10,971 nt of DNA, taken from an uncultured bacterium (GTDB lineage: Bacteria; Abyssobacteria; SURF-5). Where the stretch lies: positions 1 through 10,971 of the forward strand of contig CAZSKP010000069.1 in the NCBI GenBank assembly GCA_964607485.1. The letters are read 5' to 3'. A program made the translations under genes and the position numbers. Position 1 is the stretch's first letter. Each line of letters starts with the position of its first letter. This document shows positions 1-9,204 of this stretch, one piece after another. A model generated the notes under the pieces. The model was not told where the DNA came from and did no database searches. It worked only from the letters and a program-made list of their open reading frames with translations.

Positions 1-16
1 CATTATAGACGGGCAT
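1..16 (-). CDS. iorB: Probable 5' end of indolepyruvate ferredoxin oxidoreductase beta subunit (continues beyond the left edge)
   Basis: The iorA stop overlaps an ATG (TAATG, ATG at 16-14), preceded by GGGGGTG. It reads MPVYN..., consistent with IorB N-termini that lead into a GVGGQG motif. Only 5 codons are visible, so the identity rests on gene order. Confidence 0.45.
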
Positions 17-1947
17 TACTGTTCACCCCCGGTGGCGGCCTTCAGGAGGCGTTCTTTCGTACGCGGCCGGATGCGCGAAAGCACTATCGCCGAATTAGGA
101 CAGACCGACTTGCACGCGCCACACCGCACGCAGAGCTCTTCGTCGATGTAATAATATTCGCCTTCCTCGTCGGCGGCTTCCAGTATCGCGGGACACCCGA
201 ACTCCTTGTAACATGCGCCGCATCTCTGACATCTCTCGCGAACGATCGAGTAGCTTTCACCATATTCGGGCGGAATATACTTCTCCCGGCGATGCGACTG
301 GAGAGAGCACTCGCCCCGTGCGATTATCACGCGCAGCCCGTCGCGCTTGAGCTCGTCGGCGATTACCGACCTCAGCCGCGCGACATCGAACACGTCAACC
401 GTTCGCACCCGCCTCGCGCCGAGGCTCTTCAACAAAGCCTTCAGGTCGATTTCATCCACCGGCTGTCCCCTGACATCCTTCGAGGTCGTCGGGCTTCGCT
501 GGTGGCCGGTCATCGCTATCCATCGATTGTCGAGAACGACAAGCAGCGCATCGGCTCCGCTGGAGACGGCGTTCTGCAGGCTCTGAATGCCCGAGTGAAA
601 GAAGGTGGAGTCGCCGACAAACGTGACGAGCGGCTTGCCTTTGCTCACGTGGCTTATCCCCTGCGCGGCGCTCAGACCGCAGTTCATGCACGTGCACCAT
701 TCGGCGGCTTTGAACGGCGGCAGCGAGGCCATCGTGTAGCAGCCGATGTCGCCCCCGATGATGGCGTTGCGCTCCGTCGCGGACAGGACGGCATACACGG
801 AGGCGCGATGCGGACAGCCGATGCAGAACGTGGCAACCCGCTGCGGAATGGCGGCGGCGATCTCGTCCCCTATCGACGCCGCGCGTTTGATGTATTCCGG
901 AACCTTCTTGCCCGACACCGCGCTGAGGGCTTCGAGCACGATGTCGGGATTGGTCTCGCCCGACGGCGGAATCAATTCCTTGCCGACCACCTCGCACCTC
1001 AGCCCCAGCTCGAACGCGTGACGTTTGAGCTGGAATTCGAGGAATCCCTCGAGGTCCTCGACGACGACAATCCTCTTGAGATTCTTTCCAAATTCTTGCA
1101 GTTGCTCCGACGGGAACGGATACGTCATACCGATTTTGAAGACGGGCACGTCAAACAGCCCGAGAATTTCCAGGGCCTCCATCGCGTACAGGTAATTGAC
1201 GCTCGACGTGACGACGCCCCAGCGCGCACCGCCCCTTATAATCTTATTGAAAGCGCGCGCATCGGCCGACCGCGCCAGCGAGGCGACGCGCTCGATGCAA
1301 TTCTGATGGTTGCGCACCGCCTGTCCGAACAGGTTGAAGTAACGCTGGTAATTCGGCCTGAACTCTCCCCTGCCCTTTCGCTCGGCCACCGGCCCCAGGC
1401 GCAGGTCGCCAATGTTATGACACAGACGGGAGGGCGCATTTATCACAAATGGCAGGCTGTATTTTTCCGACAGTTCGAAGGCGGCAACGGTGAAATCCTT
1501 GGCCTCCTGTATCGTCCCGGGTTCCAGCAGCGGAAGATGCGTGTGAAGCGAATACCAGCGGTCGTCCTGTTCGCCCGTCGAGCTGGTAGCGCCGGGGTCG
1601 CTCCCGATGACGATCACAAGCCCGGCTCCGACGCCCGTGTAGCCGAGGAAATGGGCGGGCTCGGCGGCGACGTTCATCCCCACGTGCTTCATTGCCACCA
1701 TCGACCGCGCTCCGGCCCACGACGCGCCCATCGCGCCGTTGAGCGAAACGTGCTCGTTGGCGCTGTATTCCATATAGAAATCGGGCAGGCGCGACCTGAG
1801 GTTCTCGAAGGTCTGACCGATTTCGGTGGCGGGCGTGCCCGGATACATCGAGAAGTAGCCGATTCCCGCCTCGATGCCGGCGCGCGCGATGGACTCGTTG
1901 CCCATCGCGAGGATTACACCGCTTTCATTTTGCAGTAATGCTTCCAT
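16..1947 (-). CDS. iorA: Indolepyruvate (2-oxoacid):ferredoxin oxidoreductase, alpha subunit
   Basis: 643 aa. N-terminal MGNESIARG...YPGTPATEI and MKHVGMNVA motifs, FCIGCPHR and GDIGCY, TPP-binding GDSTFFHSG...LDN, and C-terminal ferredoxin-type Cys motifs (CQRCGAC...GCP; CVRCGAC..VCP). Confidence 0.92.
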   Translation of the reverse strand: MEALLQNESGVILAMGNESIARAGIEAGIGYFSMYPGTPATEIGQTFENLRSRLPDFYMEYSANEHVSLNGAMGASWAGARSMVAMKHVGMNVAAEPAHFLGYTGVGAGLVIVIGSDPGATSSTGEQDDRWYSLHTHLPLLEPGTIQEAKDFTVAAFELSEKYSLPFVINAPSRLCHNIGDLRLGPVAERKGRGEFRPNYQRYFNLFGQAVRNHQNCIERVASLARSADARAFNKIIRGGARWGVVTSSVNYLYAMEALEILGLFDVPVFKIGMTYPFPSEQLQEFGKNLKRIVVVEDLEGFLEFQLKRHAFELGLRCEVVGKELIPPSGETNPDIVLEALSAVSGKKVPEYIKRAASIGDEIAAAIPQRVATFCIGCPHRASVYAVLSATERNAIIGGDIGCYTMASLPPFKAAEWCTCMNCGLSAAQGISHVSKGKPLVTFVGDSTFFHSGIQSLQNAVSSGADALLVVLDNRWIAMTGHQRSPTTSKDVRGQPVDEIDLKALLKSLGARRVRTVDVFDVARLRSVIADELKRDGLRVIIARGECSLQSHRREKYIPPEYGESYSIVRERCQRCGACYKEFGCPAILEAADEEGEYYYIDEELCVRCGACKSVCPNSAIVLSRIRPRTKERLLKAATGGEQ

Positions 1948-2611
1948 CGAGCACCTTGTCCGGCGTGTTCACAATCAGGTTCACTCCGTCCGCCCCGGCC
2001 GATTCGGCTTCGCGCAGCGTTTTTGAAATATCCGTCACTTGTTCTTTCGGAACCGACAGGAATATCTCCTTGTCTGTCAGCCACCTGAGCTGAGGCACGG
2101 CGTCGAGAGAACCTGCGAAGAACAGGTCGGCCCCGGCTTCGAGGAACCTTTTCGCTCGCGTCACGTCCGCTTTAGTCGAGCCGCCGACGCACACCCCAAC
2201 CGTCCACGACAGCGAGGTCAGCGCCTGGGCGGTCTCTTCGCCGAAGCCGAGCGAACCGCCCTTTATCATCCGCAAGAGGGTCACCGAATCGAGCTCGTAA
2301 ACCGGTTTCGCCGCCGGAAATCGCGTGTAAAGCGGGTACGCTCCATCGGCGAGAACTACGTTCAGCAGTCCGAGGGAGGCGGCCGTGACGAGTTCCGAGT
2401 AAAGCGCGATTCGGTTCCTGTCCCTGCAGGAGACCTTCAGAAAAATCTCTTTGTCGCAAGCTTTCTTCAGCATGCCGGCAAGGACAACCGAGCTGAGCCC
2501 GCCGCTTTCCTCAAGAATCACTCCGTTAAAGTCCTCCAGGCGCGAGAGGCTCTCCACGTAACTCTCGACATCGGGCTGCAACGGAGTCTGGACTTCCACC
2601 ATCATTTTCAT
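1925..2611 (-). CDS. Methylenetetrahydrofolate reductase (MetF)-like flavoprotein, short and divergent (228 aa)
   Basis: Likely start is ATG at 2611, overlapping the metV stop (ATGA), not the ORF-track start at 3178. Contains SCRDRNRIALYSEL, AKPVYELDSVTLL, EAGAD and DGVNL, matching the MetV-associated MetF pattern (TCRDRNRxALQSDL...AKPVFDLDSVQLL). Its 3' end overlaps the iorA start by 23 nt. Confidence 0.75.
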   Translation of the reverse strand: MKMMVEVQTPLQPDVESYVESLSRLEDFNGVILEESGGLSSVVLAGMLKKACDKEIFLKVSCRDRNRIALYSELVTAASLGLLNVVLADGAYPLYTRFPAAKPVYELDSVTLLRMIKGGSLGFGEETAQALTSLSWTVGVCVGGSTKADVTRAKRFLEAGADLFFAGSLDAVPQLRWLTDKEIFLSVPKEQVTDISKTLREAESAGADGVNLIVNTPDKVLDGSITAK

Positions 2612-3276
2612 CTTTGCTTCTCTGCCTTCCGAGGAGCGCCGTCCGTTACCGGAATCCTGCGAGGCCGGACGCGCTTTCCCCAGTCCATGGGAGCGAATTC
2701 TGAATCCGAGCCGGACAGTCCCAGAGCTTCCGTGCGGTTGGCGATGCTGACCCAAACGCATTCCAATTCCGGGTCCACACTGCACTTCTCGTCCAGCTTC
2801 TCCGAGCACGGCCCGTTGAGGATTCCCTTGGGACACCGAGTCCGGGGACAGATGCCCGCCGTCCGGTTGAGGACACACTCGCCGCAGGCGTCGCAGTTCT
2901 CCAGATAATTGCCGGAGTGAATCACCGTGCCGGGGAACACGGTATCCAATCCCGTAAGGCACGGGACATCGACAGCCGACGCCACCACCTGCACGCCCGT
3001 GCCGCAGGCGAGCACGAGCACGGCCTCCACCTTTTCCAGCCGGTCGGACACGCGGCGCAGCTCGCGCGCGAGTATCCGCTGATCGCACGGCTCGTCGATC
3101 TGGAGCGTGAACACGATCTCCTTGTCGGCGAGTTCGCGAACCATTTCCTCGACCTGTTTTGTGCCGCCCGTCTGGCACACCGCCGCGCAGCCGCCGCAGC
3201 CGAAAATCGCCAGCCTGCGGTACGGCGCGACGGAAGCCCTGATCTCCTCCAGCGGTTTCTGCACAGAAATAATCAT
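2608..3276 (-). CDS. metV: MetV-type Fe-S subunit (methylene-THF reductase C-terminal domain, MTHFR_C)
   Basis: ATG at 3276 with AAGGA upstream. N-terminal MIISVQKPLEEI...GCGGCAAVCQTGG, internal ACGTGVQ, and a Cys-rich C-terminus CDACGECVL..TAGICPRTRCPKGILNGPC...C...ECVW, all typical of MetV. Confidence 0.85.
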   Translation of the reverse strand: MIISVQKPLEEIRASVAPYRRLAIFGCGGCAAVCQTGGTKQVEEMVRELADKEIVFTLQIDEPCDQRILARELRRVSDRLEKVEAVLVLACGTGVQVVASAVDVPCLTGLDTVFPGTVIHSGNYLENCDACGECVLNRTAGICPRTRCPKGILNGPCSEKLDEKCSVDPELECVWVSIANRTEALGLSGSDSEFAPMDWGKRVRPRRIPVTDGAPRKAEKQR

Positions 3277-3320: not shown

Positions 3321-3366
3321 AAATCCCCCCTTCCCCCTTTGAAAAAGGGGGACTTGAGGGGGATTT
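3321..3366. repeat. REP-like nested palindrome (AAATCCCCC...CCCCCTTT-GAA-AAAGGGGG...GGGGGATTT)
   Basis: Outer stem 3321-3329/3358-3366 and inner stem 3332-3340/3344-3352 are both perfect 9-bp inverted repeats. Confidence 0.75.
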
Positions 3367-3384
3367 TGAAAACTGCCACGACTC

Positions 3385-3401: not shown

Positions 3402-3451
3402 TTCCACGATTATGCAATAATGGTTTTTCAACTTTGTTTTCGCGGGCGCTT

Positions 3452-3479
3452 GTAGGGGCGCACAGCCGTGCGCCCCTAC
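3452..3479. repeat. GTAG-type REP palindrome
   Basis: GTAGGGGCGCAC-AGCC-GTGCGCCCCTAC: a perfect 12-bp stem with GTAG/CTAC ends, the hallmark of GTAG-family REPs. Confidence 0.8.
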
Positions 3480-3538
3480 GTATCATATGTCTCTATGCAC
3501 AAATACGATTGTGACCATTTCCTAAAATGCCTGCGGTA

Positions 3539-4165
3539 TCAATCGAGCAATCCGAACAGCGTGCGAAGCTTGTCAACGAAGTATTCCGGTTTTTCCTCTT
3601 CAACTCGTCTGATGCGGCCCTGCGCAACCGTCCACTCGTCTCCGCGAAAGACAGACGTCTTGGTGACGTCGAACGTCGAGCTCTTGAGGTTCCATTTCCC
3701 ATCGTCAAATACATAAACGTCCTTCTGAATTCCCTCGTCTCGGATGAAATCCGTATCCGCCGCCGCTCTGCCCTTTGACCTCGAATAGCGGGTCTGTTGA
3801 CGCACCTTCCGGTATCGCGCCTCGGCCTTGTAAGGAGGCCGAAACGTGTCGGTAGGGGTGATGGTTATGGTCACATTGTCCGGCCCCTGGGGAAACATAT
3901 CGTAATACTTATAGTAATAAGTGACGTCACCGGAGGGCAGCGCCACCACCTGGTCTTTGTACCGTTCGCTGTTCTGGTCGAGAAATTCTATTTGCTTGGC
4001 CAACTTCATCTCCAGCGCGCGCTGGGCCTTGTCCTCGGTTAAATCCCCCTTGATGATCGGGTCGGGATTATTCGGAATGCGAGCCTTGTTGGCCGACGAG
4101 CAGCCGATGGCCAACCCCAGCAGAAGTACGACCGAGCTTCTTCGAATCGTTGCAGTAAGAGCCAT
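3539..4165 (-). CDS. Hypothetical lipoprotein
   Basis: 208 aa, ATG preceded by GGAG. The RR plus hydrophobic stretch ends in lipobox-like LAIG-C. It starts 13 bp after the kinase stop. No recognisable catalytic motif. Confidence 0.75.
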   Translation of the reverse strand: MALTATIRRSSVVLLLGLAIGCSSANKARIPNNPDPIIKGDLTEDKAQRALEMKLAKQIEFLDQNSERYKDQVVALPSGDVTYYYKYYDMFPQGPDNVTITITPTDTFRPPYKAEARYRKVRQQTRYSRSKGRAAADTDFIRDEGIQKDVYVFDDGKWNLKSSTFDVTKTSVFRGDEWTVAQGRIRRVEEEKPEYFVDKLRTLFGLLD

Positions 4166-7240: not shown

Positions 7241-8845
7241 CTATTTTTGGGTGGGCGTGGGGATGCGGGCGACTTCGTCGATGAAGCAGAAGGGGTCGCG
7301 CTGGCTGAAGATGTCGAGGCCGAAGCTGTGGGATATGGAGAGGCAGCCGCCGCACGCCGCGCGTATGGAGCAGCCACGGCACGCGTCGCTCCCCATGCGG
7401 TAACGATTTGCCGCCTCGGAATCGTACACGCCTTCGATGCCCTGCTCGAATACGTTGCCGATGGGCGAGGGAAATTTCCTGCACGCGTGCGCCTCGCCGT
7501 CGGAGAGCACGGTGATGAAGTTGAACGCCGCCCCGCAGCCGTAGCCGGTGCAGCCGTCGAAGAGGTCCATGCCCCGCGAGCGGAGCAGTATGTTGAAGAG
7601 GTTGTCTTTGAGGCGCATGTGCGGATGCTCCTCCGAAGCGCGGAGATATTCGTCCAGAAACGAGATGAACCGTTCGCGCTCGGGAAGGTGGAGCTTCGCG
7701 CCTTCGCCGACCATCGAAAGGCGATTGAAGTTGAACGACTTCGTGAGTCCCTCAAGCTCAAGCGCGAGAGGGATGACGTCGTCGATGTTGTCTCTGGTGA
7801 CGGTGACCATCACCATCGAGTACACTCCCAGCTCCTTGAGGAGCCTGAGAAACCGCACCGCCCGCCCGTGATATCCCTTGCCGCGTATTCTGTCGTTTTC
7901 CGGCTCGAGGCCCTCGAAGCTTATCTGAAAAAACGACGGCACGCTGATGGCGAGTATTTCCTCAAGCCTCTTCCGCGACGTGGGGTTTCCGAGGATGCCG
8001 ACCTGAAACCCCATATCCACCGTACGGCGGTACAGTTCGTTGAAACGGGGATACAGGAGCGGATTCCCGCCGGAGAACGTCACCTGGCCGGAGACGTTCA
8101 GCTTCCTGCAGAAAGTTTTGAGGTCATCCAGCACGGCGAACGCCGTTTCGAGGGGCATCGGCGCGCGGTCGCTGCGGTCGTAGCAGTGCAGACACCGGAG
8201 GTCGCACGTCTGCGTGATGTGCCACTGAATTGTAAAGACGCCGACGCTCAAGAACTCCTCGCGCGCGCCTTCCACCGTTGTAAACACGGCAGGGTCGCGC
8301 CGAATGAGAGACGGAGGCGTCAGGATGAGTCCCATTTCCTCGCCCTGTGCAATGATGTGTTCCACCGTATCCACAGGGAGTCCCCCGATACGAGCCGCCT
8401 CCTCTGGCGCAATCTCCTCCACCGCCATCTTCAGCACCAGCAGGTCTTCGTCGGTGGCCGGACGGATGTAAACCTCGCCCGATTTCGGTCCCTTCCACAC
8501 GAGGACCCTCTCCGCTCCCTCCTCCGGCCCTGCGGCCACGGAGCCGCTTTCAGAAGGAAGCAGCGAGCACAGGTTTTTCCAGGAAAGTTCCAGCAGCCTG
8601 AGGGTTGGATTCACCTCAGGCGCCTGCGCTTCTGCATTGGCGGGCGCGTCGGAGGTCTTCACCTCGTGATACGCCCATTCGAGGCGCGCAAGCTCTGCGG
8701 CAAACCCGGGCGCTGCTTCGATTGACGCCAGCGCTTCGGGAAACCGCTCCGGCCCACCTTCGCAGAGCGCGACGGCCTTCTTCCAGACGTTCTCCTTAAT
8801 TATGGAGCGACAGGCGGGATACACCTCTTCAATCGTGTCATTCAT
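7241..8845 (-). CDS. sbtM: Radical SAM/SPASM peptide maturase, SbtM (selenobiotic / thio(seleno)oxazole) family
   Basis: Likely start ATG 8845 (534 aa; in-frame start at 8899 is possible). QWHITQTCDLRCLHCYDRS (CxxxCxxC), FSGGNP, and SPASM cysteines GCTGYGCGAAFNF...ACRKF...CRGC...CGGC...DPFC. About 200-aa N-terminal extension. Directly downstream of an SbtA-like peptide. Confidence 0.88.
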   Translation of the reverse strand: MNDTIEEVYPACRSIIKENVWKKAVALCEGGPERFPEALASIEAAPGFAAELARLEWAYHEVKTSDAPANAEAQAPEVNPTLRLLELSWKNLCSLLPSESGSVAAGPEEGAERVLVWKGPKSGEVYIRPATDEDLLVLKMAVEEIAPEEAARIGGLPVDTVEHIIAQGEEMGLILTPPSLIRRDPAVFTTVEGAREEFLSVGVFTIQWHITQTCDLRCLHCYDRSDRAPMPLETAFAVLDDLKTFCRKLNVSGQVTFSGGNPLLYPRFNELYRRTVDMGFQVGILGNPTSRKRLEEILAISVPSFFQISFEGLEPENDRIRGKGYHGRAVRFLRLLKELGVYSMVMVTVTRDNIDDVIPLALELEGLTKSFNFNRLSMVGEGAKLHLPERERFISFLDEYLRASEEHPHMRLKDNLFNILLRSRGMDLFDGCTGYGCGAAFNFITVLSDGEAHACRKFPSPIGNVFEQGIEGVYDSEAANRYRMGSDACRGCSIRAACGGCLSISHSFGLDIFSQRDPFCFIDEVARIPTPTQK

Positions 8846-8976: not shown

Positions 8977-9204
8977 CTATTTTCCCTTACAGGAACTTCC
9001 GGAGCAGGAACCTGCGGAGCAAGAGGTCTTCGCAGGGTCGGGAGTCTTCCCCGTACAGGAGGTCTTCTCCTGAGTCTTTCCCGTGCAGGAGGTGCACGAA
9101 CTCTTGCGGTGAGTTGCACAGCCGCTCGTGGTGAGCGAGGCGCCCGCAAGCAGGCCCACAATGCTCACTCCGGCAAGAATCTTCTTCAGGTCTTTCGTAT
9201 CCAT
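8977..9204 (-). CDS. sbtA: SbtA-family RiPP precursor peptide (radical SAM target), all-Cys form, 75 aa
   Basis: GGAGG SD 7 nt before ATG 9204. MDTKDLKKILAGVSIVGLLAGASL leader typical of the family, a core with six Ser-Cys dipeptides, TAG stop, adjacent to an SbtM-like radical SAM gene. Confidence 0.88.
   Translation of the reverse strand: MDTKDLKKILAGVSIVGLLAGASLTTSGCATHRKSSCTSCTGKTQEKTSCTGKTPDPAKTSCSAGSCSGSSCKGK
9042..9093. repeat. Intragenic direct repeat (30-nt period) encoding TSCTGKT twice
   Basis: 9042-9063 and 9072-9093 are 20/22 identical, with both differences synonymous. A third partial KTSC unit follows. Confidence 0.8.

Follow-up and report, generated by a model that had tools for sequence, protein, structure and literature searches.

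The window analysed here, the whole of a 10,971-nt stretch of DNA from an uncultured SURF-5 bacterium (Abyssobacteria), is an entire contig (CAZSKP010000069.1, C69 in the following) of a 4.7 Mb genome (GCA_964607485.1) that is 97.5% complete. At its beginning lies a module of four genes in which homologues of MetV and MetF, the components of the MetVF-type methylenetetrahydrofolate reductase (MTHFR) of acetogens, are followed by homologues of IorA and IorB, the two subunits of indolepyruvate:ferredoxin oxidoreductase (IOR). Proteins of this module are marked by an asterisk (MetV*, MetF*, IorA*, IorB*), and its genes are:

2608..3276, minus strand: metV*, MetV-family Fe-S protein of 222 amino acids (aa); PF12225 at 88.8 bits (cut-off 23), E 1.9e-25
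1925..2611, minus strand: metF*, shortened MTHFR-fold barrel of 228 aa; PF02219 at 18.1 bits, below the gathering cut-off of 24
16..1947, minus strand: iorA*, IOR-alpha-like subunit of 643 aa; TIGR03336 at 579.7 bits, below the cut-off of 650.9
2..16, minus strand: first five codons of iorB* (MPVYN), with an ATG that shares one base with the iorA* stop

Consecutive genes overlap by 4, 23 and 1 nt, and the initial annotation of this DNA is thereby confirmed; iorB* continues on a second contig. The stop of iorA* and the start of iorB* read TAATG at 14-18, and only five iorB* codons are present because the window is the whole of C69. The end of contig C21 equals the first 19 bases of the window, and C21 carries an IorB-like frame of 207 aa (L006:14374-14997; PF01558 at 86 bits; TIGR03334 at 122.9 bits, cut-off 205.8). 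The next genes there encode a histidine kinase and a sigma-54 response regulator. We infer the join of C69 and C21 from this 19-base overlap together with an identical gene order in eight relatives.

Upstream of metV*, folate, Wood-Ljungdahl and hdr/mvh genes are lacking from the immediate neighbourhood, again as first described, and the neighbours are a 208-aa protein without a Pfam family and a GHMP kinase. The former (3539-4165, minus strand) is lipoprotein-like and occupies the same place in seven relatives with 57-66% identity. The 262-nt gap upstream of metV* holds two inverted repeats (3322-3367 and 3451-3480); a promoter scan of the minus strand upstream of metV* found none, and an Rfam search of the window returned 0 matches. 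This gap is 15-30 nt long in several relatives, so the module is probably read there together with the upstream GHMP kinase and lipoprotein-like genes.

A conserved gene order exclusive to one IorA branch

The arrangement is not unique to this genome, which removes the first refutation that the initial annotation had allowed for. The order metV-metF*-iorA(-iorB) recurs in 43 distinct loci from five lineages, with flanks that differ between the groups, and is thus not a product of chance. The core set comprised 44 rows, of which one duplicate was dropped, and 40 of the loci possess all four genes when the C21 continuation of the window is counted; these loci are kin in five groups and not 43 independent events. 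The hosts are mostly uncultured bacteria, and named homologues carry the label "Ca. Abyssubacteria", Hydrogenedentota, Lindowbacteria or Poribacteria, hence we refer to the family of the window as Abyssubacteria-like. Close MetF* homologues (44-55% identity) occur in eight of nine genomes of the family, all in the order metV-metF*-iorA-iorB, and IorA* was found neither in the ninth (G002, 77% complete) nor in G010.

Exclusivity is apparent from the side of MetF as well as from that of IorA. In a scan of genome contigs, covering the best 80 of 583 loci and with the ordinary set picked on the AKPVYDxD motif, the 15 loci with a MetF devoid of the Gly-Asp motif are all flanked by metV upstream and iorA downstream (among them "Ca. 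Acidulodesulfobacterales" records and one Chloroflexota record), and none of the 65 loci with this motif has iorA (51/65 have at least 2 kb downstream). A pattern scan of metagenomes returned 12 loci, ten of the MetF* type and two ordinary ones; six of the ten reach iorA and four meet a contig edge first, and most of these loci fall into one clade with one member labelled NC10. When 401 Spirochaetota genomes were searched with IorA at E 1e-130, 17 matches were obtained: the four genes are present in 16/16 fetched loci, while the 17th (L181) starts at the contig end and reads metF*, then iorA. Twenty more iorA loci, chosen by score and length, consisted of two with more than 1000 bits on the IorA* profile, both with four genes, and 18 with less than 500 bits, which lack metV and metF. 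The class of G1330 had IorA* matches in 2/61, and one further locus there contains the four genes. Where loci were chosen by IorA similarity alone, metF* lies directly upstream in 20/20 and metV is also present in 19/20; metV or metF is nearby in none of 83 non-module iorA loci (65 + 18; 62 of the 65 have at least 1.4 kb upstream). A search of 401 genomes from the phylum of G043 at E 1e-130 yielded no IorA*, and among 401 Chloroflexota genomes only the known G042 locus reached an IorA score in the module range. The gene-order counts leave out IorA proteins of Deferrisoma, Dadabacteria, Helarchaeota-labelled and further Chloroflexota records (P0265, P0304, P0310, P0341-P0347, P0442, P0444). The pairing of MetV, a MetF-like protein and IorA that the initial annotation had singled out is thus real, being conserved across lineages, restricted to one IorA branch and distinct from ordinary metVF pairs.

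A fifth conserved gene is not shared among the 44 flanking proteins scanned (of 125 listed). An RraA/HMG-aldolase-family gene follows iorB* at L130, L133 and L138, i.e. in the NC10-labelled clade only, and might hint at a 2-oxoacid substrate. The hosts differ widely in metabolism: the acetyl-CoA synthase domain PF03598 occurs in 15/17 Spirochaetota hosts (13 strong) and in 0/12 other hosts searched, and MetV* is the sole MetV found in 15/17 Spirochaetota hosts. A general link of the module to the Wood-Ljungdahl pathway was ruled out, with PF03598 in only 15/29 hosts. Hosts of the Acidulodesulfobacterales type (G045:C2:109662-115911; G1405, G1506, G1508, G1510-G1513) carry a full-length metF and a second metV about 5 kb apart, metF first.

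A separate canonical metVF, which had been named as a point to check, exists twice in this genome, as full-length pairs on contigs C60 and C7, and a separate full-length MTHFR is present in 28/29 other hosts. The C60 and C7 pairs are only 35-39% (MetV) and 28-32% (MetF, partial) identical to the pair of the window and sit on different tree branches, which rules out a recent duplication of the genome's metVF as the source of the module. From its translations, the C60 locus appears to be a Wood-Ljungdahl cluster of the hdrA-folD-metV-metF-cooS-acsB kind. The C7 pair (L008:8207-16041), with orthologues of 79-91% identity in eight relatives, is another unusual MetVF context, where, as read from translations, an MvhD-like frame precedes the pair and several glutamate-synthase-domain genes surround it. 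Two further iorAB pairs (C13, C20) have neither metV nor metF beside them. An FrhB-like (F420 hydrogenase beta-type) gene immediately precedes the C13 pair (L009:9340-12410), which is thus another IorAB with an extra redox neighbour; the third iorA (C20:69704-71739) is split over two frames by a frameshift or an assembly error.

In quick IQ-TREE phylogenies (LG+G4, midpoint root, support from the Shimodaira-Hasegawa-like approximate likelihood-ratio test only), the trees of MetV (support 97, versus 31 ordinary rows), IorA (100, versus 30) and MetF (100, versus 26, a value that may be inflated by long branches) each place 24 module rows on one side of a branch. The same five sub-groups appear in all three trees, a topology compatible with a single origin of the module. 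The module side of the IorA branch also takes in ten proteins of unknown neighbourhood, and proteins of the cultured Deferrisoma camini (WP_025321989.1) and D. palaeochoriense belong to the IorA* branch with every signature motif present. Among the same relatives, identity is 82-91% for ordinary MetF, 44-55% for MetF*, 63-74% for MetV* and 75-85% for IorA*, and MetF* evolves two to three times faster than IorA*. Ratios of nonsynonymous to synonymous substitution rates (dN/dS, Nei-Gojobori, some dS near saturation) were 0.11-0.33 for metF* (20 pairs), 0.02-0.26 for metV* (19 computable) and 0.03-0.14 for iorA* (19), indicating that selection on metF* is relaxed but purifying.

Intact cysteines, a stripped barrel and altered oxidoreductase motifs

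MetV* bears Cys27, 30, 34, 64 and 91 in its N-terminal alpha/beta domain and Cys128, 131, 134, 143, 148, 157, 165 and 173 in the PF12225 domain. Twelve of these are common with 31 ordinary MetV and, together with Cys34, are kept in all covering rows (44 module rows). Ordinary MetV is described with one or two [4Fe-4S] clusters and predicted zinc binding (PMC8515935, PMC8760232), and as an electron-transfer module that is also fused to RnfC, as in RnfC2 of Acetobacterium woodii (PMC8515935). PDB sequence searches found no solved MetV relative; a model of MetV* had no Foldseek match at E 0.001, with the Cys-rich part barely tested, and its residues 5-142 gave generic alpha/beta matches only (best Z 10.2). 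The initial annotation had spoken of an Fe-S/flavin pair, and with all conserved Cys kept, the Fe-S half of this description is intact; the flavin half fared worse, since flavin-contact positions are lost and the barrel is shortened in one lineage.

The AlphaFold2 model of the 228-aa MetF* of the window, the form to which the fold result applies, has eight strands at a predicted local distance difference test score of 89.5. VIA-align placed MTHFRs first (8uy1, Z 18.8, root-mean-square deviation 2.8, 209 aligned) ahead of unrelated barrels (Z 16.6-17.3), and Foldseek ranked isocitrate-lyase-type barrels beside MTHFR; the sequence motifs are those of MetF, and a PDB sequence search with the MetF* profile had no MTHFR match. 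Residues of 43 MetF* and 66 ordinary MetF were mapped onto E. coli MetF. The window protein has Ala91 for Asp120, Phe156 for Lys172 and Gly167 for Gln183 and lacks the Gln219/Phe223 segment; it retains Glu6 (Glu28), Asn66-Arg67, Gly90, the AKPVYELD loop at 101-108 and Arg152. Equivalents of Asp120 and Lys172 are found in 0/43 MetF* versus 66/66 ordinary MetF, that of His273 in 0/43 versus 65/66 and that of Gln183 in 1/43 versus 65/66, while the Phe223 segment, present in ordinary MetF, is a gap in 43/43. The Glu28 equivalent persists in 10/43 versus 65/66, including 9/9 in the family of the window, and is Gln, Cys or hydrophobic in 33/43. In a smaller set with other Chloroflexota-type proteins, Lys172 was kept in 2/17. 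Glu28, Phe223, Gln183 and Asp120 are the four C1-carrier positions of the E. coli enzyme that were tested by mutation, and Glu28Gln and Asp120Asn were nearly inactive (PMC11094777). These residue losses make ordinary MTHFR activity of MetV*F* very unlikely.

Whether MetF* holds a flavin is doubtful, given that several flavin-contact positions are lost and that the barrel is shortened in one lineage. Asp at position 62 remains in 1/43 and Lys172 in 0/43, alongside Gly119 and Tyr/Phe131 in 43/43 and a basic residue at 168 in 42/43. As Gly119, Tyr131 and the basic residue at 168 are on the flavin adenine dinucleotide (FAD) contact list of the E. coli enzyme (PMC11271092), MetF* may still retain a flavin. 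Asn66-Arg67, Gly90 (Gly119), Pro103-Val104, Asp108 and Gly160 are kept in 43/43 MetF*; on the barrel face only Gly119 and the Tyr131 loop are common to all lineages. Ordinary MetF has about 290-310 aa, whereas MetF* has 222-276 aa in four groups; in 16 Spirochaetota loci it is down to 173-189 aa, ends after about strand 7 and has lost the last strand. Start codons were picked automatically and some of the MetF* lengths are too long. Archaeal MTHFR-domain clusters of 223-246 aa in the ESM Atlas (mostly Thermoproteota) resemble MetF* in length and are nearest by language-model features, but a score of 0.87, below 0.9, makes them a lead only, and they are possibly independent shortened MTHFR homologues.

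IorA* of the window contains PF01855 (POR_N), PF02775 (TPP_enzyme_C) and PF00037 (Fer4), with the Cys of the proximal cluster and a C-terminal 2x[4Fe-4S] domain. All superfamily marks of 2-oxoacid:ferredoxin oxidoreductases are present in the module, i.e. POR_N, TPP_enzyme_C, the ferredoxin domain, the POR gamma domain, the thiamine diphosphate (ThDP) motif and the cluster Cys. The cluster Cys, the Glu of the NE motif and the ThDP motif GDSTF are invariant in 39 module IorA* rows, and IorB* retains GxGGQG. The two-subunit layout, domain order, ThDP motif, cluster Cys and GxGGQG loop thus resemble those of IorAB, whereas a comparison of 40 module rows with 61-63 others shows systematic differences in 53 IorA and 12 IorB columns. 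Asp116 (63/63), Gln124 (62/63), Arg170 (62/63), Thr173 (63/63) and Gly422 (63/63) of other IorA are replaced by Ser, Thr/Ser, Asn/Met, Ser and Asn, respectively; IorA* reads GSDPGATSSTxEQDDRWYSLH for ADDPxMHSSQNEQDNR, NxPS for RxTT and CMNCG for CMGxx, and its ferredoxin domain has the branch-specific Tyr599-Tyr600 and Asn618. IorB* has GSERRGGAQREG where other IorB read xEVHGMAQRGG (ERRGGAQRE for EVHGMAQRG), plus an insert of about ten residues nearby. The branch-specific positions of IorA* and IorB* presumably line the substrate pocket, and IorA*B* probably prefers another 2-oxoacid than classical IOR. Both IOR cut-offs are missed, a weak test in the case of TIGR03336, as the unrelated C13 paralogue (580.7) also falls below the alpha cut-off. 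For IorA*B*, the aryl 2-oxoacids given in the initial annotation as substrates of IorAB are only putative ones. PDB sequence searches found no IorA structure. Acyl-CoA ligases or kinases are reported as neighbours of arylpyruvate enzymes (PMC13285125), but no acyl-CoA ligase or acyl kinase was found among the 44 flanking proteins of the module.

A possible Fe-S relay for a 2-oxoacid oxidoreductase

We propose, at a probability of roughly one half, that the four genes form one functional unit in which an IOR-derived, ThDP-dependent 2-oxoacid oxidoreductase (IorA*B*) would be served by MetV* as a dedicated Fe-S relay, with MetF* as a dead scaffold. Electrons would travel, in either direction, along a chain that links the ThDP site to the three [4Fe-4S] clusters of IorA*, on to those of MetV* and to a cellular carrier such as ferredoxin, flavodoxin or a membrane complex. 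MetF* would be a pseudoenzyme that does not reduce methylenetetrahydrofolate (methylene-THF) and is kept as a structural partner or adapter of MetV*. A relay with a structural partner is favoured because IorA*B* and MetV* are conserved, while MetF* is stripped and shrinking but never lost. The module resembles the MetVF-type (type II or 2S) MTHFR of acetogens such as Clostridium ljungdahlii in that metV lies directly upstream of the metF homologue (43/43 module loci), in the Cys pattern of MetV, in the barrel fold and in the NR and AKPVYDxD motifs (PMC8515935). It differs in its MetF* of 173-276 aa without Asp120, Lys172, Gln183, His273 and the Phe223 segment, in GPC(E/S/D) for NGPCGG, in having iorAB and not Wood-Ljungdahl genes as neighbours, and in its separate branch. 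In types III and IV, a MetVF core is encoded next to a redox module acting as its electron donor or acceptor, as in MetVF-RnfC2 of A. woodii and MetVF-HdrABC-MvhD of Moorella thermoacetica and Sporomusa ovata (PMC9430772, PMC8760232). Here a ThDP-dependent 2-oxoacid oxidoreductase takes the place of the partner and MetF* looks inactive; MetV would thus act for this partner and not for MetF. The MetV domain fused in RnfC2 is a precedent for such re-use, and by its make-up the module points to recruitment of the electron-input part of a folate reductase for wiring another enzyme.

Several points weigh against this relay. Operons also combine consecutive enzymes, chaperones and regulators, so exclusivity is no proof of an electron path. 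The surviving FAD-contact positions (Gly119, Tyr131, basic 168) would fit a retained flavin as well as a MetV interface, and the NR and AKPVYDxD motifs cannot be taken as established MetV contacts, as they also occur in ordinary MetF without a metV match in the fetched flanks (30/65, among the best 80 of 583 loci). IorA* owns a ferredoxin-like domain, which makes the need for a relay less evident, and the Chloroflexota IorA (L063) retains several ordinary IorA residues. The residue map rests on alignments at 13-18% structural identity, and the binding and electron path proposed for the module are predictions from sequence and gene order. A complex prediction with trimmed MetV*, MetF* and IorA* chains of L196 (IorA* scored, IorB* omitted for size) reached 0.08 against a mark of 0.32 and speaks neither for nor against a complex.

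Among the alternatives, MetF* might still bind flavin mononucleotide (FMN), with MetV*F* as a flavin-ended module that passes electrons from IorA*B* to an acceptor other than methylene-THF. We consider this unlikely yet worth keeping in mind: ordinary MetVF binds FMN and takes electrons from ferredoxin (PMC8515935, PMC8760232, PMC9430772), equivalents of Gly119, Tyr131, Asp/Glu132 and Arg/Lys168 are kept, the long MetF* forms are modelled as full eight-strand barrels, and loss of the Phe223 segment would open the flavin face. However, Lys172 is missing in 43/43, Asp/Glu stands at position 118 in 22/43, positions 62, 88, 171 and 273 vary between lineages, strand 8 is absent in the 16 Spirochaetota loci, and MetF* is far more divergent than ordinary MetF of the same relatives. 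A somewhat smaller chance is given to MetV*F* as a factor off the catalytic electron path that matures, protects or regulates IorA*B*, by assembling or repairing clusters or by sensing redox state or oxygen. It would account equally well for the strict co-occurrence, the intact Cys and the fast-evolving dead barrel, and suits hosts with very different metabolisms, as judged by PF03598; on the other hand, most IorAB do without MetV*F* (0/83), and the passages of the MetV literature covered here mention no such function.

It seems improbable that MetV*F* is an enzyme in its own right that acts on a new substrate, either ahead of or behind IorA*B* in a short pathway and unattached to it. The residue changes of IorA*B* do suggest a new substrate, and Glu6, Lys59, Asp89, His92, Asp149 and Arg152 are invariant in the family of the window, but these invariants are not common to the other lineages, and in Spirochaetota the barrel is truncated while IorA* remains 52-54% identical. 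Hitch-hiking, where a redundant metVF copy landed once beside iorAB and is now decaying, is compatible with the trees and with the shortening and rapid evolution of MetF*; yet open frames of lineage-typical length in 43/43 loci, the dN/dS of metF* and metV*, and the retention of the module while all flanking genes were replaced largely refute it, which leaves it very improbable. Least credible of all is the reading of MetV*F* as an ordinary MTHFR of the MetVF type that IorAB would feed directly. Family origin, fold and the Glu28 equivalent in 9/9 of the window's family speak for it, but three of the four C1-carrier positions (Asp120, Gln183, Phe223) are lost, Glu28 is replaced in 33/43 by residues including the Gln that nearly inactivates the E. 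coli enzyme (PMC11094777), and the hosts own other MTHFRs.

A more far-reaching version of the relay proposal, which we regard as tentative, is that IorA*B*-MetV*F* might be an undescribed four-subunit redox enzyme with a 2-oxoacid of its own. Its MetV module, whether or not MetF* contains a flavin, would connect oxidation of the oxoacid or a reductive carboxylation to a second pool of electrons (membrane complex, bifurcating partner) and bypass free ferredoxin; MetF* would then represent a bacterial MTHFR pseudoenzyme that is being gradually eroded from about 290 to 175 residues. The component families are known. No mention of their combination, of the series of MetF pseudoenzymes or of the IorA* branch was found in the open-access literature searched (subscription journals and supplements lay outside the search), and to that extent they are new. 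MetV is absent from the parts consulted of a 2026 review on pyruvate:ferredoxin oxidoreductase (PFOR) and of PMC13290082, as are metF and indolepyruvate from those of the Abyssubacteria description; the word "indolepyruvate" occurs once in PMC9430772. In acetogen bioenergetics, two questions are open: what MetV does and what truly donates electrons to MetVF reductases (PMC8760232). A MetV kept over long evolution while its catalytic partner was dismantled isolates the function of MetV itself and marks those MetF residues that serve solely to hold MetV. Moreover, the IorAB of this unit make up a new branch in which conserved motifs are altered, and the cultured Deferrisoma species in this branch may make the module testable. 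Databases label the module proteins as "indolepyruvate oxidoreductase", "MTHFR" or "hypothetical", so metabolic reconstructions of several uncultured lineages may misread it.

Further features of the window

Outside the module, the following features stand out in the window:

8977-9204, minus strand: SbtA-family thio(seleno)oxazole precursor of a ribosomally synthesized and post-translationally modified peptide, 75 aa; TIGR04081 at 45.9 bits, above the cut-off; Ser-Cys repeats, no in-frame TGA
7241-8845, minus strand: radical S-adenosylmethionine maturase SbtM; TIGR04082 at 693 bits
5662-7005, minus strand: frame of 447 aa with only a weak pentatricopeptide repeat (PPR) match

The maturase lies downstream of the SbtA-family precursor and belongs to a known system. 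The 447-aa frame, with a G+C of 0.46 versus 0.61 in its neighbours and palindromic intergenic repeats on both sides, looks inserted.

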